A DNA stretch of 48,488 bases from a virus (lineage: Duplodnaviria; Heunggongvirae; Uroviricota; Caudoviricetes), in the IMG/VR virus record IMGVR_UViG_2597490154_000001; one strand, 5' to 3'. The notes below the pieces were generated by a model. It was not told where the DNA came from. It did no database searches and worked only from the letters and a program-made list of their open reading frames with translations. Below are positions 7,269 through 31,475 of this stretch, in pieces (positions within the stretch are counted from its first letter, which is position 1; each line of letters opens with the position of its first letter). The translations under genes were made by a program, and so were the position numbers.

Positions 7269-9677
7269 GTGAGTAAATTATTATTTACGATGACTGACGC
7301 CGGGCGTCAGGAGTTGGTTAATGCCAACAAAACAGGAACAAATAAAGTTGAGATTGTTTCTGTTGGTTTAGGTGGTAGATATTATGTCACGTCAACCTCA
7401 CAAACAAATATAACAAACGAAATAAAACGACTTACCACAATAGGTGGCAAAGTTGTTTCCCCTGATACAATTCATGTAACGGCGAAGGATGATAGTAAAG
7501 ATGAGTATGTTGTCCATACAATAGGATTGTATACAAATAAGGGAACGTTGTTTGCTGTATACTCGCAAGAACAAGCAATAATAAATAAAGCATCATCTAC
7601 TATTGCTTTAATATCAAGTGACATAGCAATCAAGACTCTTGATACTAAAAATATTATATTTGGTGATGTTGAGTTTATTAATCCTCCCGCGACCGAAACT
7701 GTTGTTGGGGTTGCAAGATTTGCTAATGAACAAGAAATTGATGCAGGTACAGATGATTCCCTTGCTGTTTCAGCAAAGCGGCTTAAGCAAGCCATTGTGA
7801 AACATGAGCAATCACGTAATCATCCTGATGCAACTTTAACCTCAAAAGGCTTTGTTCAACTTAGCAGCGCCACCAATAGCACGTCTGAAACGCTTGCTGC
7901 GACGCCTAAGGCTGTTAAGGCAGCATATGACCTGGCTAACGCTAAATACACCGCACAGGACGCGACCACTGCGCGGAAAGGGATAGTTCAGCTCAGTAGC
8001 GCCACCAACAGCACGTCTGAAACGCTTGCGGCAACGCCAAAGGCTGTTAAGGCGGCATATGACCTGGCTAATGGCAAATACACCGCACAGGACGCTACCA
8101 CTGCGCGGAAAGGAATAGTTCAGCTCAGTAGCGCCACCAACAGCACGTCTGAAACGCTTGCGGCAACGCCAAAGGCTGTTAAGGCGGCATATGACCTGGC
8201 TAATGGCAAATACACCGCACAGGACGCTACCACTGCGCGGAAAGGGATAGTTCAGCTCAGTAGCGCCACCAACAGCACATCTGAAACGCTGGCTGCGACG
8301 CCAAAAGCTGTTAAGGCGGTAATGGATGAAACGAACAAGAAAGCGCCCTTAAACAGTCCTGCGCTGACCGGAACGCCAACAACGCCAACTGCGCCAAAAG
8401 GGACTAATAATACTCAGATCGCAAGCACGGCTTATGTGATGGCCGCGATTGCCGCACTTGTAGACTCGTCGCCTGACGCACTGAATACGTTGAACGAGTT
8501 AGCGGCGGCGCTGGGAAACGACCCGAATTTTGCGACCACCATGACTAAAGCGCTTGCGGGTAAGCAACCGAAAGATGCCACTCTGACGGCGCTGGCCGGG
8601 CTTGCTACTGCGGCAGACAAGTTTCCGTATTTTACGGGGAATGATGTCGCCAGCCTGGCAACCCTGACAAAAGTCGGGCGGGATATTCTTGCGAAATCGA
8701 CCGTTGCCGCTGTTATCGAATACCTCGGTTTGCAGGAAACGGTAAATCAGGCTTCTGGCGCATTACAGAAAAACCAGAACGGCGCAGATATTCCAGGAAA
8801 AGATACCTTCACAAAAAATATTGGTGCATGTCGCGCTTTTCACGGTGCTATTAGTACAGGGGCAGGGAACTGGACAACGGCACAATTGATTGAATGGCTG
8901 GATTCTCAAGGGGCATTCAATCACCCATACTGGATGTGCAAATGTTCATGGTCATACGGCAATAATAAAATTATTACCGATACTGGCTGTGGAACTATTC
9001 ATCTTGCAGGTTGCGTTATTGAGGTTATGGGTAATAAAGGTGCCATGACCATCCGTGTAACAACACCAAGCACTTCCAGCGGTGGCGGAATCACTAACGC
9101 TCAATTCACTTATATTAATCATGGTGATGCTTACGCTCCTGGCTGGCGACGAGACTACAACACGAAAAACCTGCAACCTGCATTTGCTTTAGGGCAGACA
9201 GGAAACAGGGTTGCAAATGATAAAGCTGTTGGCTGGAACTGGAATAGCGGTGTTTATGATGCAGACCTAAAAGGCGCATCAACATTAATCCTCCACTTTA
9301 ATATGAATGCGGGGAGTTGCCCTGCTGTACAGTTCCGCGTGAATTACAGAAATGGCGGTATCTTTTATCGTTCAGCGCGTGATGGTTATGGCTTTGAAGC
9401 TAACTGGTCAGAGTTTTACACCACAACACGCAAACCCTCTGCGGGAGATGTTGGTGCATATACGCAGGCAGAATGTAACTCAAGGTTTATTACAGGTATT
9501 CGCCTTGGCGGTCTGTCATCTGTTCAGACATGGAATGGTCCCGGCTGGTCTGACAGGTCAGGTTATGTCGTTACGGGTTCAGTTAACGGAAACCGTGATG
9601 AATTAATTGATACAACTCAGGCAAGGCCAATTCAGTATTGCATTAATGGAACGTGGTATAACGCGGGGAGTATTTAA
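7269..9677 (+). CDS. tail fibre protein (constant N-terminal part fused to currently expressed variable C-terminal part Sv)
   Basis: 802-aa ORF, GTG start with SD; tandem ~44-aa repeats ([19 protein letters not shown] motif); C-terminal third lies inside the invertible segment. Confidence 0.85.
7848..8330. repeat. tandem direct repeats, period 132 bp, about 3.7 copies, inside tail fibre gene
   Basis: Units start at 7848, 7980, 8112, 8244; near-identical DNA and encoded 44-aa units. Confidence 0.9.
8713..8738. other. gix/hix-like recombination crossover site (left), inside tail fibre gene
   Basis: TTATCGAATACC-TC-GGTTTGCAGGAA; reverse complement closely matches the right site and the Mu gix half-site TTCCTGTAAACC as I recall it. 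Confidence 0.7.
8723..8794. repeat. left arm of ~72-bp imperfect inverted repeat bounding the invertible segment
   Basis: Reverse complement of 11717-11788 with 2-3 mismatches; encodes peptide [16 protein letters not shown](N/K)QNGADIP in both fibre variants. Confidence 0.9.
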
Positions 9678-9679
9678 TT

Positions 9680-10213
9680 ATGATGCACTTAAAAAATATT
9701 ACTGCTGGCAACCCTAAAACAAAAGAACAATACCAGCTAACGAAACAATTTAACATCAAATGGCTTTATACAGAGGATGGGAAAAACTGGTATGAGGAAC
9801 AAAAGAACTTTCAGCCTGATACGTTGAAAATGGTCTATGACCACAACAACGTTATTATTTGTATTGAAAAGGATGTTTCAGCAATTAATCCAGAAGGCGC
9901 AAGCGTCGTTGAGGTTCCTGATATTACAGCAAATCGCCGGGCTGATATTTCGGGTAAATGGATGTTCAAAGATGGCGTAGTGATAAAGCGAACTTATACC
10001 GAGGAGGAACAGAGGCAGCAGGCAGAGAATGAAAAGCAAAGCCTGTTGCAACTTGTCAGGGATAAAACCCAGCTATGGGACTCACAGCTACGGCTGGGCA
10101 TCATTTCCGACGAGAATAAACAAAAATTAACCGAGTGGATGCTCTATGCGCAGAAAGTCGAATCTACAGACACCTCCAGCCTGCCAGTAACATTTCCCGA
10201 ACAACCTGAATGA
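9680..10213 (+). CDS. tail fibre assembly protein (Tfa/U-like)
   Basis: 177-aa ORF immediately after fibre gene; N-terminus MMHLKNI shared with inverted paralogue. Confidence 0.8.
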
Positions 10214-10216
10214 GAC

Positions 10217-10241
10217 AAGGCCCGATAGCGGGCCTTAATTT
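10217..10241 (+). terminator. rho-independent terminator between convergent Tfa genes
   Basis: Hairpin AAGGCCCGATAGCGGGCCTT followed by T-rich run. Confidence 0.6.
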
Positions 10242-10769
10242 TTATTCAGGCTTTTGTGGCCATTCAGGATTTGCCGTATCCACACGGCTGACCAGAACAC
10301 TGTAGCGTTCCCATGCTTCCAGTCGTGTGCGTTCCTCGTCTGTTGCCATATTCAGCCTGACAGCGCGTTCCAGCGGCTGGATGACTGATTCAGCTTCGGA
10401 AAACAATGCGGCCTTTTGTGATTCGGCTTGTTGTTGCTGTTCGTCTGCCGTATAAATCCGTTTAACTACAGCTCCATCCTTAAACATCCACTTTCCTGAA
10501 TCATCGGCACGACGATTGGCTGTTATATCTGGAATCTCAACGACACTAAAGCCTTCGGGATTAAGCGTTGAGGCATCTTTGGTTATGGCAACAATAATAT
10601 TATTTTCGTCGTATACAATCTTTATGGTGTCGTCCTGAAAGTTATTTACTTCCTCATACCAGTTTTTACCGTCCTCAGAGTAAAGCCAGACAACTCCGTG
10701 TTTCTTTGTTAATTCATACTGTTCCAGTGTTTTAGCGTTACCCGCTTTTATGTTCTTTAAGTGCATCAT
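10242..10769 (-). CDS. alternative tail fibre assembly protein (U'-like)
   Basis: 175-aa ORF on - strand, paralogue of 9680-10213, inside invertible segment. Confidence 0.8.
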
Positions 10770-10770
10770 A

Positions 10771-11790
10771 TTAAACGCTCGCTACATTATACCAGGTGCC
10801 ATTTATATACTTTTGAACGGGTCTGTAATAAACGCCCGCTATATTATCGGCAGAATTGGACCCTGTATCCTGAACATTAATACCAGTCAATACATGACCT
10901 GACGGGCACTGGAAATTCCATGTTTGCCAGTTATTCACGCCATAATATCGCTGTGAACCAAGTCGAACATCTTTCACATAACGGGAATCAAAGTTACCGT
11001 AATCTGAGGGATTAACACGCCCTGTAATATTTATGGTTTTATTACTTTGAATACTGCCGGAGACAAAGCGCATAACATGGACGTTATTAGCATAAACATC
11101 CAGATACCCGTCGCCATTTTGTTTAAATCCCGTGTCATTATCACCCAAAACAATCGAGTTACCGCCAAGAGCACTGGATGTTCCGATGCCCAGTGCACCA
11201 TTCAATTGACCGCCAGATAATGACAACGCCCCAACCTCAGCAGCAGTCGGTTTAATGTGCGAACTGTAAATTACATATACAGTTCCATCTGTCAGGCCTG
11301 TTGGTTTATTCGCTGTATAAGTTGGTGATGTATGAATCGTTACGCTGGCGTTACTGGTATAATCCCACTGAATATTAACACCTGTGGCGTAATTACCTAT
11401 TTCAACATAAACATCATAGGTATTACCGGATGTATTCACCCATGCAAAATTAGTAAATCCAACCGATGTCCGTCGCCATAATGCACCAGTAATACCTTTT
11501 GGATTCCCATTTCCGGCACGCAGAACCAGCTCAGAGATGCCTGCTTGATGCGAGGAGCCAACGTTATACCCTGCGCCACCAATCAGGCTTATGTAAACCA
11601 CGGAACTGGCTTGTGGCATTGTTACAGTTGCCAGTTTGAACCATCCAGCACCACCACTAAAAGACATGGTTGTTGAATTTGTTGTGCCGATATTACGCAG
11701 GAATAGTTTTTTATCGGGAATATCTGCGCCGTTCTGTTTTTTCTGTAATGCGCCAGAAGCCTGATTTACCGTTTCCTGTAAACCGAGGTT
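10771..11790 (-). CDS. silent alternative tail fibre C-terminal cassette (Sv'-like), expressed only after inversion
   Basis: Reverse frame open from crossover site to stop at 10771 with no stops; ORF track shows internal Met at 11667; shares junction peptide with expressed fibre. Confidence 0.75.
11717..11788. repeat. right arm of inverted repeat bounding the invertible segment
   Basis: Reverse complement of 8723-8794. Confidence 0.9.
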
Positions 11791-11798
11791 TTTGCGAA
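11773..11798. other. gix/hix-like recombination crossover site (right)
   Basis: TTCCTGTAAACC-GA-GGTTTTTGCGAA, two 12-bp half sites around a 2-bp core. Confidence 0.7.
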
Positions 11799-11862: not shown

Positions 11863-12417
11863 ATGCAATATGGTTATGCGAGGGTGTCAACTTTTGACCA
11901 GAATTTGGAATTACAACTGGAGGCGCTCAGGAGTTTAGGATGTGACCGGATTTTTGAAGATAAAATATCCGGTGCTAAATCAAAACGACCAGGACTTGAT
12001 AAGCTACTTAAGGTGTTACGGCCGGGCGATACGGTTATTGTCTGGAAGCTGGACCGAATGGGGCGTTCCCTGATTCATCTTGTTGATTTACTTAACCATT
12101 TTTTATCAAACAACATTGAGTTTATTTCGATTACGGAAGGGATAAAAATTAGCACTTCAATTGGCCGCTTTGCCTACACGATGCTGAGTGCAGTCGCAGA
12201 GATGGAGCGGGAAAATATGATTGAAAGAACGCGTGCAGGATTGGCGGTGGCAAGGGCTAACGGCAGGATAGGAGGACGCCGCTCAAAGCTGGCACCAGAG
12301 CAATGGGAACAGATCGGAAGACTTATTGCGAATGGTGTTTCACGTAAGCGGATAGCGATTATCTTCGATGTTACCTTATCCACGCTTTACCGCAGGTTTC
12401 CGGCTGGGAATCATTGA
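11863..12417 (+). CDS. site-specific DNA invertase, serine recombinase of the Cin/Gin/Pin/Hin family
   Basis: 184-aa ORF; N-terminal YARVSTxDQ catalytic motif, resolvase-like core and C-terminal HTH; high similarity to P1 Cin as I recall it; adjacent to inverted repeats. An internal Fis-dependent enhancer is expected by family knowledge but not located. Confidence 0.95.
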   Translation: MQYGYARVSTFDQNLELQLEALRSLGCDRIFEDKISGAKSKRPGLDKLLKVLRPGDTVIVWKLDRMGRSLIHLVDLLNHFLSNNIEFISITEGIKISTSIGRFAYTMLSAVAEMERENMIERTRAGLAVARANGRIGGRRSKLAPEQWEQIGRLIANGVSRKRIAIIFDVTLSTLYRRFPAGNH

Positions 12418-12563: not shown

Positions 12564-12605
12564 ATGATTGTGGGTGTCTGGTTGGAAACTGACCAGATAT
12601 GGAAA

Positions 12606-12716
12606 CAAAAAGCCCGCAGATAAATCTGCGGGCTTCTTGCGACATCCACGGAAAACCAACAACAACAATCCATGGGCGCCTCGACAACTCCCATTATACG
12701 TTGGTTTTCCGTGGAC
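12606..12716 (-). ncRNA. candidate CopA-like antisense RNA of the IncFII-type replicon
   Basis: Large stem-loop (CCACGGAAAACCAAC ... GTTGGTTTTCCGTGG, 12647-12715) plus a hairpin at 12610-12634 that on the - strand is followed by a T-run; lies in the repA leader. Confidence 0.45.
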
Positions 12717-12730
12717 GCAAGAGCGAACAT

Positions 12731-13579
12731 ATGGATAGACCAATGCCGTCTCTACGTTCCGCTTACGTTTGTAATTTGTCGCCGGAGTTCCAGCCTCCAA
12801 AGCACCATACGCACAAGCTGCCGCTAGTGTTATCTGATGCTTTACAGCGCATTAATGGTCGTGATCTTACGTGTGAGGTTGCGTTCTACGTTAATCAGCC
12901 GTCAGAGCGGAAGCGCCGGATAAACGAGCATCGTCGTCGGGCGATTAATGCTGTGATTGCTGCGATTTTGCACCATGTAAACATCATTTCTAAGCGGGTT
13001 CTGGCCAGTGCTGAGGCGTTGGCTGATTTTTGCGGCCTGTCTACCGTATCCGAAGCTGGGAACAAGTCTATAACACGCTGTACAAGGGCGTTGTCGCAAC
13101 TGAAAGCGTTAGGTTTTATTGATTATGAACGTCGCTGGGATCGGGTGAATAAACAGTATTGGCCAGCGAAAATAGAGATTCGTGATCAACTGCTGGAAAC
13201 CGTTGGTATTACTGAACAAGCATGGAGACGTGCGGTTAGCCAGAAACTTAATTACTTCAATGCGAAGAATAGCGAACGGCTTAAAAAAGCGATAACGGAG
13301 GCTGATTATAAGCGTATTGTTATGCAGGAGCAGATGGAGAATGTATGGCGTCAGAGGAAGACAGCCAGAGAGATAAAGGCAAAACAGAAAGCAGCGGAGA
13401 GAGCTGCGCGTCTTGTTCAGGAAAAGGGAGAGGCCGAACTTCGTCATCAAATCACTAGAGAGGTTAGCCAGGAATTTGCTGATGGCATGTATCCTGGTGC
13501 TGACCTTGCATATTTACGATCCCTCGTTGAGCAGCGTTATAACAGGTTAAGAAAGACCTGGAAATCACTCCAACATTAA
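12731..13579 (+). CDS. repA: plasmid replication initiator RepA1 (IncFII RepA family)
   Basis: Clear similarity to R100/R1 RepA1 as I recall it (SITRxTRAL...LG(F/L)I.Y block, RRRAI motif); start set at internal ATG 12731 because 12599-12730 covers leader RNA structures. Confidence 0.85.
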   Translation: MDRPMPSLRSAYVCNLSPEFQPPKHHTHKLPLVLSDALQRINGRDLTCEVAFYVNQPSERKRRINEHRRRAINAVIAAILHHVNIISKRVLASAEALADFCGLSTVSEAGNKSITRCTRALSQLKALGFIDYERRWDRVNKQYWPAKIEIRDQLLETVGITEQAWRRAVSQKLNYFNAKNSERLKKAITEADYKRIVMQEQMENVWRQRKTAREIKAKQKAAERAARLVQEKGEAELRHQITREVSQEFADGMYPGADLAYLRSLVEQRYNRLRKTWKSLQH

Positions 13580-17377: not shown

Positions 17378-18520
17378 TTATGGTCTGCTTTTCTGTGCCA
17401 GCTTATCAGCACATGTTTTTATCAGATCCTGTAGTGTCCTGGCTGGCAGGTTTGCATCCAGTACGCTGAGTATGCTGTTGTGATCAGCCTGGTCGATTAC
17501 TTTGCCTGTCGGTGGTAGTAGCTTGAGCTGAGGATTCAGGTTTTCGTCAAAACTGATAAGTGCTCTGGCGTTTCTGAGCAGATCAAGAAGTAAGGCTGAT
17601 ATCACATCATCTTTAGTCATTGTTGGTAGATTTAGTGCCGCTTTAGTTTTCTCCGTCGCCTTGTCAAACTCTTTGATTAGTGTCTTGCGGTAGTTTGGTT
17701 CCGTTAATAGCCGATGATGTTCTGTTGCCGTTCGGATAATCTTTGTTTCCTGATACAGTCGGTTGTATAGCATTCGCTCGTATTCTGCCTTTAACACGCT
17801 GCTGATAGCGTTAAAGGCTTCAATGTAGGCCAGCTTGATATCCTTCACGCCTGGACCGTCGATACTTTCCATGAGCAAGGTAAATCCGTCTTTTGTCATG
17901 CGATAGATTGTTATTTCGCGGTCGCTTCCTTCCAGCGGTCGTTGTTCTTTAAAGAAGTGACGCGCCGCAGCCGTGCGAGGAATGCGTAACGCATCGATGG
18001 CCATAACGATGGAATTGTTTGTGGTGCTGAATGCTTGGGCAACATCGGCTGAGGTTGTGAGTGGCTCGTTGTTGCACACCTTAACGTAATACATTGGTTT
18101 AGCGTTGAGCGTATCGACAACCTCACGAGCATTGTTTGGTGAGACGGTTACGGTCGCGGCCGTTTGCGCGTTCTGGTTGAAGTAGCAGTCTTCCAGCCGT
18201 TCGAATACATCCCATGCCTGATCGGTTTCGAGCATTTTAGCGTGACGTGCAGCCCCGCGTTCGGTCCAGAGGATGAGCTTTCTAACGTTATTCGCGATGG
18301 TTTGAAAATCTCTTAAAGAGATTTTCAAACTTTGGAGATCTGTACCTTTTACAACTATGAAATGTTTTCCTTCTGTAAACCGGGACTTATTACGGTGGTG
18401 ATTTCTGTGAAGACATTCGACGCTACAGCCATATAGTTTGGCAAGCAGCTCCGTGGTGATAACGGGGAGCTGGTTATGCAGGATAGGCTGTAGGGTGTTA
18501 ACGGTCGGAAGCGTTTTCAT
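17378..18520 (-). CDS. phage antirepressor (KilA-N/ORF6N-type N-terminus with Ant-like C-terminal part)
   Basis: 380-aa ORF; N-terminal region resembles antirepressor N-domains; start overlaps the upstream small ORF (ATGA). Confidence 0.6.
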   Translation of the reverse strand: MKTLPTVNTLQPILHNQLPVITTELLAKLYGCSVECLHRNHHRNKSRFTEGKHFIVVKGTDLQSLKISLRDFQTIANNVRKLILWTERGAARHAKMLETDQAWDVFERLEDCYFNQNAQTAATVTVSPNNAREVVDTLNAKPMYYVKVCNNEPLTTSADVAQAFSTTNNSIVMAIDALRIPRTAAARHFFKEQRPLEGSDREITIYRMTKDGFTLLMESIDGPGVKDIKLAYIEAFNAISSVLKAEYERMLYNRLYQETKIIRTATEHHRLLTEPNYRKTLIKEFDKATEKTKAALNLPTMTKDDVISALLLDLLRNARALISFDENLNPQLKLLPPTGKVIDQADHNSILSVLDANLPARTLQDLIKTCADKLAQKSRP

Positions 18521-18708
18521 TTTGCACCTCCCATAACTACTTTGGTTACGAGGGAGATTTTTGCGACAGAAACAGCGTTATCGTTGCTGGCGATGCGCAT
18601 AGCTTCGCGCTCGATGATTTCAGCCAGGCGGAATTTATCGGCGTATGAGGCTTTCTTGAGAAGGATCTTTACGAGGTTGACGTAATAGTCATGGGGTAGG
18701 TTTGTCAT
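18517..18708 (-). CDS. small protein translationally coupled to the antirepressor (in the position P1 icd occupies)
   Basis: 63-aa ORF, 4-nt overlap with ant start; preceded by antisense-RNA-like hairpins. Confidence 0.4.
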   Translation of the reverse strand: MTNLPHDYYVNLVKILLKKASYADKFRLAEIIEREAMRIASNDNAVSVAKISLVTKVVMGGAK

Positions 18709-18865
18709 TGTGATGATTCCCTTAAAGGTTAAGGATACTCACCACCGTCAGGTTCCAATCATTGGGTGGTGAGACGTGCAGGGTTGGAACTACCGGACAC
18801 AATGACGAACCGGCGAGTCTTACGACTCCCCCGCACGCCCCACCATAATTTGGGTGTAGCAGTGC

Positions 18866-18960
18866 TTTACGCATAAAAAAACCGCTAACGCGGTATGCGC
18901 CATTGTGTCTACGGGGTTCCAATCCCGACCGTAGATTTTGCTACGGCTAGGAAAGTGTCC
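18866..18960 (-). ncRNA. candidate c4-like antisense RNA with its own terminator
   Basis: Hairpin 18911-18934 displays GGTTCCAATC in the loop; - strand terminator (ACCGCG..CGCGGT then T7) at 18866-18890; complementary elements at 18750-18760 and 18783-18790 in the icd-like leader. Confidence 0.35.
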
Positions 18961-19868: not shown

Positions 19869-20252
19869 TGCTGATCGGATTCGCGGTCCTTTCAGCATAA
19901 CGTCGTTGTACTAATACAACCACGCAAGCACAAACAGCAACTACATTCTTACCCAACTGAGGTGAATAGTCCACTATTCATATAAAAAAATTTAGCTCAT
20001 TAGCTCATGCAAAATGAAGGTTTTTAACTTATTTACGTGTAATCTTATGTAATAAAAGCGTTTTTTATTCCTTCATTATGAAGGGTATGACGTGTAATAT
20101 GGCTTGGGGCCTTTCCGCCGATTCGCACCCGGGCACTGACTTTCAGGAAAGGATTATCCACTTGCCGTACCACGCAGGCACAAACAGCGTGCTTGCTCTC
20201 GCGTCATTTTCGTCGGTGGGGATGCCGTGAAACGGCCTGTAAGGGCCACACA

Positions 20253-20375
20253 ATGAAAAAATACTACATGTGTATTTTTATCGTTGTTACTGGGGCTTTG
20301 TTTACGCCACATGGAGAGGGTTGGAAGATTACTGATAACGCTCTGAATGTGACGATAAACATTAGCAGCAAGTAG
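20253..20375 (+). CDS. small hydrophobic protein (40 aa), function unknown
   Basis: MKKYYMCIFIVVTGALF...; SD-like AAGGG 8 nt upstream; own terminator immediately downstream. Confidence 0.35.
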   Translation: MKKYYMCIFIVVTGALFTPHGEGWKITDNALNVTINISSK

Positions 20376-20380
20376 CGATT

Positions 20381-20404
20381 AGGCCCCTTCGGGGGCCTTT
20401 TTTA
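20381..20404 (+). terminator. rho-independent terminator
   Basis: AGGCCCCTTCGGGGGCCT followed by TTTTT. Confidence 0.65.
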
Positions 20405-25544: not shown

Positions 25545-26612
25545 ATGAATAAACAAGTAATTATTTCTGACTGGATCAACAACCCTAACAGCCTGTTAAG
25601 CACTGATACTGGCTACCTATTACGCCATGTTAATGGTCGTATGGTCAAAAGCGATGAGCACGAAACCTTTTTCTTTGTTGAAGACGATGGGCGTATCTAT
25701 GAGGATGGTTACTCTTATGAAGCCCAAACTGGTTGTATCCCTGCGGAGCTGGTGGACGTAACAGAAGATCTGCGTAAAGCATGGCTTGAACAGCAGCAGC
25801 GCGGAGATGATTACGTAAACACCTATCAGGAACGCCAGAACGCGCGTCTTGCCCGATATATTGCTCGTGCAGAAAAAGCCAGAAAAGAAGGTGCGGTAGC
25901 GCATAAGCGAGCGCATGACCTGTTGGATGTGATCCCGTTAGGCCAGCCGATTTTAGTTGACCATTATAGCGCGAAAGGCCATCGCCGCCGTTTGTCTAAA
26001 GCTGATGCGTTATTCAGAAAAGCGTTTGTTGAATGCGAAAGTAAAGCATCACACTACGAGAGCAAAGCCGCAGGTGTTGGTCGTAATGGAATTTCGTCTG
26101 ATGATCCTGATGCGCTATTTAAGTTGCTTCGTAAGCTGCAAGGCTGCATGAAGTCACACGTCAAAATGAAGGCCGCAAATAAGGCCATTCGCAAATACAA
26201 AAAAGACCAATTACAGCAGCTTTCTGCATTAATCGATCTCAGGTTTACAGAAAGCGAAGCCAAAGAGTTACTGGCCGGAGATTTCTGTGGGCGCATCGGA
26301 TTCCCTTCATACGCACTGAGCAACAATAACGCCGAGATCAAACGACTACAGAGCCGTATTAAGGAGCTTGAATCGGTCAAGTCTGTAACAGGAGCACAGC
26401 GCGAAGAATACGACGACTTTTCTATGAAGATAGATCCAGAGGATAACCGCATCCTGTTTTATTTCCCTGGCAAACCAGAGGCAAACATTCGTTCGCTGCT
26501 TAAATCACGCGCCTTTAAGTGGAGTCCAACCCGTAATGCATGGGTTCGCAAGATTACTCCAAATGCCCTGGCTGATGCCCGATATCTGAAAGAATCGCTA
26601 TTGAAAGCCTGA
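25545..26612 (+). CDS. hypothetical protein (355 aa, coiled-coil rich)
   Basis: Driven by cassette copy 2; no confident family assignment. Confidence 0.5.
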   Translation: MNKQVIISDWINNPNSLLSTDTGYLLRHVNGRMVKSDEHETFFFVEDDGRIYEDGYSYEAQTGCIPAELVDVTEDLRKAWLEQQQRGDDYVNTYQERQNARLARYIARAEKARKEGAVAHKRAHDLLDVIPLGQPILVDHYSAKGHRRRLSKADALFRKAFVECESKASHYESKAAGVGRNGISSDDPDALFKLLRKLQGCMKSHVKMKAANKAIRKYKKDQLQQLSALIDLRFTESEAKELLAGDFCGRIGFPSYALSNNNAEIKRLQSRIKELESVKSVTGAQREEYDDFSMKIDPEDNRILFYFPGKPEANIRSLLKSRAFKWSPTRNAWVRKITPNALADARYLKESLLKA

Positions 26613-31090: not shown

Positions 31091-31166
31091 TGGCCCCTTA
31101 GCTCAGTGGTTAGAGCAGGCGACTCATAATCGCACGGTCATCGGTTCAAGTCCGGTAGGGGCCACC
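31091..31166 (+). tRNA. tRNA with CAU anticodon, most like tRNA-Ile2 (lysidine) rather than initiator tRNA-Met
   Basis: Folded by hand: 7-bp acceptor stem GGCCCCT/AGGGGCC, D-stem GCTC/GAGC, anticodon loop CTCATAA, T-loop GGTTCAAGTCC, encoded CCA; G1-C72 pair excludes initiator. Confidence 0.9.
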
Positions 31167-31475
31167 AATTCACTCTCACACATAAAGATAAGCGCGGTGG
31201 AGTTACTTCTTCGTGCTCATCTTTATGTGTGCCTGGTGCACATTTCGGGAAGCCGTTGGTTAGTGAGTACAGGCAGGGCCTGTTATCCGCAAAGGGGTAA
31301 AAGCTGGAGCGGCACGGAACTGTAGCCGTGTTACCAAAACAGCGTTGTCGGGCGATATCCGGCACACAACAGGCAAGGGCATTAATCAGTCTGGTTAGTG
31401 CCCTTTTCGTTGTGTCTGCTGTAGAGCTGGCCAGCGTTATGACTGCCGGAGATAAGCGCCGGAGGCACAACTAAC

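Follow-up and report, generated by a model that had tools for sequence, protein, structure and literature searches.

An active tail-fibre inversion switch of the Mu/P1 type in the phage-plasmid of Escherichia coli ATCC 25922

Introduction

The G segment of phage Mu and the C segment of phage P1 are invertible tail-fibre segments which have been characterised experimentally. The enzymes of Din-type inversion systems include Gin, Cin, Pin and Hin, which are known to cross-complement. They are small serine recombinases of about 180-200 aa, with a catalytic domain at the N-terminus and a helix-turn-helix at the C-terminus, and they exchange strands at the central dinucleotide of their 26-bp sites. 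Din systems have in cis a recombinational enhancer, whose two Fis sites are separated by about 48 bp and which usually lies in the 5' end of the invertase gene. They depend on Fis and on supercoiling of the DNA. The inverted repeat of Mu has 34 bp. The G(-)-type tip of Mu targets Citrobacter, Shigella sonnei, Erwinia and E. coli C.

We have analysed a module homologous to these two segments in a stretch of 48,488 bp, which we call the window. It is the complete plasmid of E. coli ATCC 25922 and matches NZ_CP149501.1 at 100%. The carrier is a temperate phage-plasmid whose tail is P2-like, and it is no relative of Mu or P1. The neighbouring baseplate genes V, W, J and I are P2-like. A P1-type C4 antisense RNA immunity element is also found in the window. 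In the literature, we have found no paper on the switch of this plasmid, nor on the Yersinia phages vB_YpM_39, vB_YpM_41 and vB_YpM_44, with which it is compared below. Phage HQ103 and the pSLy3 group were also considered and turned out to be unrelated elements.

The module is a complete, active and ordinary inversion switch of the Mu/P1 type, which acts on the receptor-binding tip of the tail fibre. Its mechanism is the textbook one of Gin and Cin, with nothing new. The original prediction, made from the sequence of the window, had already called it a known type of switch, and we agree.

Results

Organization of the segment

The features of the segment are collected in Table 1. The constant N-terminal part of the fibre lies outside the segment, and two alternative C-termini lie inside it, on opposite strands. 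Each of them is closely abutted by its own chaperone gene, and both fusion frames are open. The start of the constant part is a GTG in our list of open reading frames, whereas RefSeq, which annotates the gene as 'tail fiber protein', places it at ATG 7290. This part contains four 44 amino acid Phage_fiber_2 repeats (Pfam PF03406, E = 2.9e-82, 4 stretches). The hairpin between the convergent genes U and U' has a T-run on the plus strand only.

Table 1. Features of the invertible segment and its surroundings, with positions in the window.
Feature	Position	Strand	Description
S, expressed tail fibre	7269-9677	+	802 aa
Sc, constant N-terminal part of S	7269..8724	+	485 aa from GTG 7269
Left gix-like site, 26 bp	8713-8738	+	TTATCGAATACCTCGGTTTGCAGGAA; core TC at 8725-8726
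Left-site halves flanking the core			TTATCGAATACC-TC-GGTTTGCAGGAA
Left repeat arm	8719-8801		Pairs with 11710-11792; 83 nt, 93% complementary (repeat search)
Sv, variable C-terminus now expressed	8727..9677	+	Mu Sv' (G(-)) type by homology
U, fibre-assembly chaperone expressed in this orientation	9680-10213	+	177 aa; Pfam Caudo_TAP, E = 5.6e-37
Terminator-like GC hairpin, centre of the segment	10217..10236	+	Consensus match only
U', silent chaperone	10242-10769	-	175 aa; Pfam Caudo_TAP, E = 1.5e-36
Sv', silent alternative fibre C-terminus	10771..11784	-	338 codons
Right repeat arm	11710-11792		Partner of 8719-8801
Right gix-like site, 26 bp	11798-11773	-	TTCGCAAAAACCTCGGTTTACAGGAA; core at 11786-11785
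Right-site halves flanking the core		-	TTCGCAAAAACC-TC-GGTTTACAGGAA
Serine DNA invertase, Gin/Cin/Hin family	11863-12417	+	184 aa; transcribed away from the segment
Candidate recombinational enhancer	11881..11972		Inside the 5' end of the invertase gene; based on position and alignments

The expressed Sv has 88% amino acid identity with Sv' of Mu over 319 aa. Its chaperone U is 98.9% identical to U' of Mu and 95.5% to U' of P1, and the silent U' is 92.6% identical to U of Mu and 91.4% to U of P1 (blastp). The two chaperone types are 55-59% identical to each other, and each is 91-99% identical to its own counterparts in Mu and P1. The silent Sv' is 84-86% identical to cassettes of the Yersinia phages vB_YpM_39, vB_YpM_5 and vB_YpM_6 (tblastn and blastp), and its C-terminal half has 82% identity with the tip of the P2 H fibre. 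Judged by homology, the expressed cassette is the S'-U' cassette of Mu (G(-) type) and the silent tip is P2-H-like. The name Sv-U is only positional. RefSeq has a partial tail protein, 'missing N-terminus', at the place of the silent cassette. NCBIfam gave no informative names for the fibre and chaperone proteins, and only sub-threshold matches for the invertase.

The original prediction had placed Sv-U in the expressed orientation and a start-less U'-Sv' cassette on the other strand. The position is right, but the naming is reversed relative to homology with Mu and P1. As to the starts, Sv' has no functional start of its own and needs fusion to Sc, but U' is a complete open reading frame with its own ATG. 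The reverse frame is indeed open from the crossover site through Sv', on the minus strand from 11787 to 10771. Inversion had also been expected to fuse the constant N-terminus to the other C-terminus and to exchange the chaperone. When the segment is inverted in silico at the central TC (8725-8726 / 11785-11786), an open and uninterrupted S' of 823 aa is obtained, and both chaperones belong to Caudo_TAP. The predicted inverted repeat does exist, but it is not 72 bp long: We find 73-83 bp, the lower value being that of BLAST (73 nt, 97%, left arm 8722-8794). The arms differ internally only at 8732 and 8774. The left arm, at its full length in Table 1, codes for the common start of Sv and Sv'.

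Crossover sites

The two gix-like sites are found exactly at the coordinates given in the original prediction. They are inverted on one molecule and have the same 2-bp core, TC. The gix sequence of Mu, TTATCCAAAACCTCGGTTTACAGGAA, agrees with each of them at 23 of the 26 positions; this sequence was borne out by alignment, in which the right site was aligned with gixR of Mu. A degenerate gix pattern with at most three mismatches detects only these two sites in the whole 48,488 bp, with 0.05 expected by chance. Extra crossover sites, as in a Min- or shufflon-like system, were sought at the same threshold and none were found beyond these two. Looser matches at 26229 and 47402, with four mismatches each, look like chance. 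The locus differs from the multiple-inversion systems (Min of p15B, R64-type shufflon with Rci) in having two sites, two cassettes and a serine, not a tyrosine, recombinase.

The inner half-site has G and A variants. In related IMG/VR contigs, the variants of the proximal and the distal site are found exchanged, which is the pattern to be expected of bases that travel with the ends of the segment.

Invertase and candidate enhancer

The adjacent gene is an invertase of the Cin/Gin family, as predicted. Its identity is only 54% to Gin and 55% to Cin. It contains the Pfam domains Resolvase (E = 9.7e-45) and HTH_7 (E = 3e-13), and residues 2-181 match the sequence of the Gin crystal structure 3UJ3 (E = 1.6e-61). 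Residues R7, S9, D64, R65 and R68 are the same in this enzyme, Gin and Cin. The region of the catalytic serine was checked for inactivating changes and has none: Ser9 is intact. Positions 104-109 of helix E read AYTMLS in this enzyme, versus FFHVMG in Gin and Cin, so that its regulation may differ. This divergent subfamily, with its altered helix-E interface and low identity to Gin, might perhaps be regulated unlike the classic Fis-dependent enzymes.

We have compared 19 related invertase genes (78-100% amino acid identity). The open reading frame is intact in 18 of them, and stop codons are found only in L029. The closest relatives keep the invertase at the same place, adjoining the outer half-site TTCGCAAAAACC or TTCTCAAAAACC. 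A scan with the sigma-70 consensus found no promoter in the interval from the right site to the start codon of the invertase. A weak match (8/12), TTGCCT-17 nt-TATTTT, may be seen by eye before the gene; we have not counted it as evidence.

The result of the promoter scan would fit a different source of the enzyme: The sites might be functional and the adjacent gene inactive, with a Din-family invertase from a resident prophage acting in trans. The sites are near enough to the canonical gix for this, and many chromosomal prophages of E. coli contain similar fibre junctions (1,591 chromosomal places). We nevertheless consider such action in trans very unlikely, since the local enzyme has lost none of its catalytic residues, its HTH domain is intact, its reading frame is conserved in nearly all the related genes, and so is its place beside the outer half-site in the closest relatives. 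Inversion by the local invertase is the reading we prefer.

A candidate enhancer is found inside the 5' end of the invertase gene, at the same relative place as the annotated cin enhancer of P1 (+19..+90). When Fis sites were scored against a degenerate consensus, a number of weak candidates were obtained, but no decisive pair. It was replaced by a positional comparison with the annotated cin enhancer and by an analysis of synonymous sites. Two conserved blocks are seen, +22..+41 and +76..+110. Two 15-mers, +23..+37 and +71..+85, which are 48 bp apart, line up with gin and with the annotated enhancer of cin at the same positions. In 17 distinct invertase genes of the subfamily, synonymous-codon identity is greatest in the intervals +13..+48 and +73..+120. 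The block formed by codons 7-30 ranks 14th of 156 in synonymous identity, a signal which is not cleanly separable from coding or gene-start constraint. Position and modest synonymous-site conservation are no more than suggestive of a recombinational enhancer in this region.

Both orientations and position of strand exchange

The original prediction depended on the occurrence of both orientations, and both are found in independent complete assemblies of ATCC 25922. Junction searches detect the orientation of the window in CP117232, CP101926 and CP149501, and the flipped one in CP158444, CP037450 and CP081011 (laboratory strain 25POL). The record CP032086 (ATCC 25922) contains two tandem copies of the plasmid, one in each orientation. 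Except for the flipped segment, the 25POL plasmid agrees with the window at every position of the 9,001 bp compared. The flipped copies in CP081011 and CP032086 (its second copy) are identical to the product of the in-silico inversion, with no mismatches in 9,001 and 8,001 bp, respectively.

These two independent flipped copies also locate the exchange. The arm polymorphisms at 8721 and 8732 bound it to 8722-8731, a stretch of 10 bp which has the gix core at its centre and includes the predicted core dinucleotide. An exchange modelled outside this interval gives 2-10 mismatches to the natural flipped copies; the exchange is thereby resolved to 10 bp but not to the 2 bp of the core. Natural polymorphisms of the arms thus place strand exchange within 10 bp without any experiment. 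The exchange fell outside the approximately 62 bp of near-identical repeat found further in. Its confinement to the surroundings of the core indicates an active, site-specific switch.

RecA-dependent homologous recombination between the inverted repeats, instead of site-specific exchange, is even less probable than an invertase acting in trans. The repeats are long enough for occasional homologous exchange, but a crossover in the approximately 62 bp on the inner side of 8732 would be recognizable by 2-4 diagnostic mismatches, none of which are seen. Least probable of all is that the two orientations are assembly artefacts, or ancient lineage differences of a switch now frozen: CP037450 has many frameshifts and CP032086 is a 94-kb linear 'dimer', but at least six independent records, from ATCC 25922 or laboratory strains with an identical plasmid, show both orientations with otherwise identical sequence, an artefact would not exchange the 8732/11779 polymorphism in exactly reciprocal fashion, and the invertase is intact.

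Discussion

In our opinion, site-specific inversion of the Din type (Gin/Cin/Hin/Pin) very probably selects the receptor-binding C-terminus of the fibre, together with its chaperone, in this temperate phage-plasmid. The invertase would bind both inverted sites. By analogy, its Ser9 would cleave at the central TC, the strands would be exchanged and the 3,058 bp between the cores would be flipped. In the orientation of the window, late transcription from upstream is expected to read Sc-Sv, with a tip of the Mu S' type, followed by U. In the flipped orientation it would read Sc-Sv', with the P2-H-like tip, followed by U'. A population of lysogens may in this way produce virions with two host ranges. 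The catalytic mechanism, the need for Fis and an enhancer, and the effect on host range would be those described in the literature on Mu, P1 and Hin.

ATCC 25922 is a common laboratory strain and the quality-control standard in antimicrobial susceptibility testing. Its 48.5-kb 'cryptic plasmid' is a phage-plasmid, one segment of which flips actively. This explains structural differences among reference assemblies of this strain, including the 'dimer' mentioned above, which is mis-joined. The switch consists of a Mu-type G cassette grafted on the P2-type fibre of a plasmid-replicating phage. Its alternative tips are shared with phages infecting Yersinia pestis, a further example of tail-fibre modules which move horizontally.

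The two orientations might even give this phage-plasmid a host range covering different genera, a tentative suggestion which we regard as rather doubtful. The Sv'/U' state, with the P2-H-like tip, is the state of near-identical phages plaque-isolated on Y. pestis EV76: vB_YpM_39, isolated on this strain, carries the Sv'-type orientation. The orientation of the window carries the G(-)-type tip, whose targets in Mu are given above. If the suggestion were true, the plasmid of a ubiquitous quality-control strain of E. coli would be an inducible phage, moving a plasmid replicon between E. coli and Yersinia according to the state of its switch.

Comparison with known systems

In organization, the module corresponds closely to the G segment of Mu with Gin. 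Both have the order Sc, gix, Sv-U and U'-Sv', gix and an outward-reading invertase, with a segment of about 3 kb, and the gix sites are similar, with an identical TC core. The differences from Mu are several. The silent Sv' has only 51% identity with Mu S over the last 84 aa and resembles P2 H instead. The constant part is a P2-H-type fibre with 44 amino acid repeats. The inverted repeat is longer than that of Mu and the invertase is distant from Gin. Mu is a transposable phage, whereas the carrier replicates as a plasmid and its tail is P2-like.

The C segment of P1 and P7, with Cin, is also carried by a phage-plasmid and has the same S/U and S'/U' logic. The identity of U and U' with those of P1 is 91-95%, and the enhancer of P1 is inside the 5' end of cin, where our candidate has an equivalent position. 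On the other hand, the segment of P1 has 4.2 kb with long inverted repeats, and cin is on the other side and reads toward the segment, whereas the invertase described here reads outward. The invertase is distant from Cin, as it is from Gin. The rest of the genome is unrelated to P1 in size and tail module, having 48.5 kb and P2-like baseplate genes.

The Yersinia phages vB_YpM_39, vB_YpM_41 and vB_YpM_44 (GenBank OR545053-55) have the same phage-plasmid backbone and invertase. Almost every gene in these records bears the annotation hypothetical. The sequence of vB_YpM_39 aligns with 94% of the window, with 96-99% identity, and the invertase of vB_YpM_44 is 98% identical to that of the window. 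These two, the ones we have examined, have the same switch architecture. They differ from the window in that the homologous segment of vB_YpM_39 is flipped, so that the Sv'-type fibre is expressed, and vB_YpM_44 has another expressed Sv cassette.

Finally, the constant part and the Sv' tip resemble H in the H/G pair of P2, and the 82% identity of the C-terminal half of Sv' extends to fibre proteins of the P2 group. The fibre of P2 is fixed, with no invertase, whereas in the phage-plasmid of ATCC 25922 a P2-type fibre is made switchable by a Mu-type cassette.

Organization of the invertible segment

The segment is bounded by two gix-like sites, 26-bp recombination sites of Din-type serine invertases, with two 12-bp half-sites flanking a central TC. 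Read on both strands, they fall exactly where the original prediction had placed them. Of the 26 positions of Mu gix, whose sequence an alignment confirmed, each site shares 23. When up to three mismatches to a degenerate gix pattern are allowed, these two alone turn up in the 48,488 bp of the window, while shuffles lead us to expect 0.05. Both are found at the outer ends of an inverted repeat. Its predicted length, 72 bp, is close to the 73 nt given by BLAST, a repeat finder extends it to 83 nt. Differences between the arms inside the repeat are limited to 8732 (G/A) and 8774 (C/A).

Features of the invertible segment and of the plasmid which carries it
Feature	Position	Strand	Remarks
S, tail fibre, 802 aa	7269-9677	+	Four Phage_fiber_2 repeats, E = 2.9e-82
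Tandem repeat in constant part of S	7854-8319	+	132 bp, 3.5 copies, 94% match; encodes 44-aa Phage_fiber_2 repeats
Left gix-like site	8713-8738	+	TTATCGAATACCTCGGTTTGCAGGAA
Inverted repeat (repeat finder)	8719-8801, 11710-11792		83 nt, 93%
Inverted repeat (BLAST)	8722-8794		73 nt, 97%
U, chaperone, 177 aa	9680-10213	+	Caudo_TAP, E = 5.6e-37
GC-rich hairpin	10217-10236		Between convergent U and U'
U', chaperone, 175 aa	10242-10769	-	Caudo_TAP, E = 1.5e-36
Sv'	11787-10771	-	Open reading frame, in phase with Sc
Right gix-like site	11798-11773	-	TTCGCAAAAACCTCGGTTTACAGGAA
Invertase, 184 aa	11863-12417	+	Resolvase and HTH_7
Invertase residues 104-109	12172-12189		Helix E
Stretch at annotated 5' end of repA (IncFII-type)	12599-12800		
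Hairpin	12606-12639		Inside annotated repA 5' end
Perfect 16-nt inverted repeat	12645-12660, 12700-12715		Inside annotated repA 5' end
Possible antirepressor control module	17378-18947	-	
ORF6N (Ant-like) gene	17378-18520		
C4 antisense RNA, P1/P7-type	18762-18850		Rfam, 77.8 bits
isrK-like RNA	18875-18947		Rfam
ryfA-like sRNA	20105-20403	+	Full-length match, 134.7 bits
tRNA-Met (CAT)	31092-31167	+	

When the 3,058 bp between the TC cores are inverted in silico, an uninterrupted 823-aa S protein with a new C-terminus is obtained, and U' begins one base past its stop codon. This is the predicted outcome: Inversion fuses the constant N-terminus of the fibre (Sc) to a different C-terminus and exchanges the chaperone. 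The silent U'-Sv' cassette had been described as lacking a start, which is true of Sv' only: U' has its own ATG. The names Sv-U and U'-Sv' are adequate as positional labels, by homology the expressed cassette corresponds to the "prime" cassette of Mu and P1. In fact, identity is 98.9% between the expressed U and Mu U', 88% between the expressed Sv and Mu Sv', and 92.6% between the silent U' and Mu U. The silent Sv' does not correspond to Mu S. It is closer to cassettes of the Yersinia phages vB_YpM_39, vB_YpM_5 and vB_YpM_6 (84-86% identity), and its C-terminal half to a P2-group phage fibre tip (82%).

The hairpin between the chaperone genes has a T-run on the + strand only, so the two states of the switch may differ in how strongly transcription terminates after the chaperone gene.

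Both orientations are found in public assemblies

NZ_CP149501.1, a complete circular plasmid of 48,488 bp from E. coli "FDA strain Seattle 1946" (ATCC 25922), matches the window at 100% identity. Two 800-bp queries over the left junction, one as found and one as predicted after inversion, were run against all complete E. coli assemblies.

Orientation of the segment in E. coli assemblies
Orientation	Match	Assemblies
As in the window	100%	CP117232 (ATCC 25922), CP101926 (Seattle 1946), CP149501, CP066145, JBRUTH010000002
Flipped	100%	CP158444 (ATCC 25922), CP081011 (laboratory strain 25POL)
Flipped	99.1%	CP037450 (ATCC 25922)
Both		CP032086 (ATCC 25922)

The last case, NZ_CP032086.1 (pL25922_3), is a linear record of 94,204 bp in which the plasmid occurs twice in tandem, once per orientation. 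A concatemer or the assembly of a mixed population is the probable origin. A single orientation in all data would have spoken against a switch: Both are present among assemblies of one strain. That flipping in ATCC 25922 is already visible in public assemblies is a useful addition.

The flipped copies in CP081011 and CP032086 coincide with the in-silico product without mismatches over 9,001 and 8,001 bp, while crossovers modelled at other positions give 2-10 mismatches. Therefore, the exchange must have fallen within 8722-8731 (ACCTCGGTTT), a 10-bp interval that includes the predicted TC core, as site-specific recombination predicts. Homologous recombination between the repeat arms might also invert the segment, and roughly 62 bp of near-identical repeat are available further in, but the exchange did not fall there. 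Flipped records might also be assembly artefacts, an explanation which is at odds with an exchange confined to these 10 bp and a perfect match to the prediction. In related IMG/VR contigs, the inner half-site variants G and A have changed places between proximal and distal sites, as expected if inner half-sites travel with the segment ends. Anatomy, orientations and site of exchange all support site-specific inversion as a switch of the fibre tip, as originally proposed.

The invertase and a candidate enhancer

The adjacent gene does code for an invertase of the Cin/Gin family: It matches the Gin crystal-structure sequence (E = 1.6e-61) and shares 54% of its residues with Mu Gin and 55% with P1 Cin. 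No inactivating change is found in the catalytic serine region, S9 is conserved together with R7, D64, R65 and R68. By analogy with the Mu, P1 and Hin systems, this enzyme would pair the two sites, use Ser9 to cleave at the TC core, and invert the segment by strand rotation, presumably with dependence on Fis. Transcription entering from the late tail operon would then yield Sc-Sv and U, or Sc-Sv' and U', with an effect on host range. Residues 104-109 are AYTMLS, compared with FFHVMG in Gin and Cin. In Gin and Hin, Fis-independent hyperactive mutations map to this region, and the difference may affect regulation.

The invertase gene can be aligned gap-free to cin over +19..+90, the annotated P1 enhancer. 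Its 15-mers at +23..+37 and +71..+85, spaced by 48 bp, coincide in position with those of gin and cin. We have compared synonymous codons in 17 distinct, mutually related genes of the subfamily from IMG/VR (78-100% amino acid identity). Synonymous identity peaks at +13..+48 and +73..+120 (0.75-0.80, compared with about 0.5 elsewhere) and drops in between. Codons 7-30, taken as a block, have rank 14 of 156. The pattern is compatible with a bipartite cis element, a candidate enhancer, but the relatedness of the genes and the position at a gene start may also account for it. A consensus scan found no sigma-70 consensus promoter for the invertase.

The subfamily is found in about 20 IMG/VR viral contigs, one of 103,445 bp. 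Most contigs with about 82% invertase identity have no match to the same gix pattern, so their recombination sites may be different.

The phage-plasmid and its relatives

The baseplate and tail genes of the plasmid are P2-like, and it also has an IncFII-type RepA, ParA, a RelE/HigB-type toxin gene with an adjoining helix-turn-helix gene, and a P1-type C4 antisense RNA adjoining an ORF6N (Ant-like) gene: It is therefore a phage-plasmid. Phages vB_YpM_39, vB_YpM_41 and vB_YpM_44, each circular and of 49 kb, belong to the same family; vB_YpM_39 spans 94% of the window with 96-99% identity. They were isolated on Yersinia pestis EV76, so the family produces infectious particles. The Sv'-type orientation is carried by vB_YpM_39, an indirect hint of a host-range effect. 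This phage is 96 nt shorter at the fibre tandem repeat, which indicates that the array is variable within the family.

Since C4 and isrK-like RNAs lie upstream of the ORF6N gene, this 48.5-kb element appears, from its sequence, to use an antirepressor control module of the P1 immI type. A ryfA-like sRNA and a tRNA-Met gene are also present. Two hairpin-forming sequences lie inside the annotated 5' end of repA. RepA may actually begin downstream of the annotated start, and the sequence here might serve as a leader or in copy control.

Comparison with known switches

No published description of the switch in the ATCC 25922 plasmid was found in our literature search, and RefSeq labels it only as "recombinase family protein" and a partial tail protein. 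As predicted, it is of a known type: It belongs to the class of the Din invertases and of the Mu G and P1 C segments, and all defining features testable here are present apart from the enhancer, which is a candidate. It differs from the classic examples in several respects. It resides on a phage-plasmid whose tail is P2-like, the invertase forms a separate subfamily which is also found in a 103-kb contig, the length of the inverted repeat is different, and a tip of the Mu S' type is paired with one of the P2 H type.
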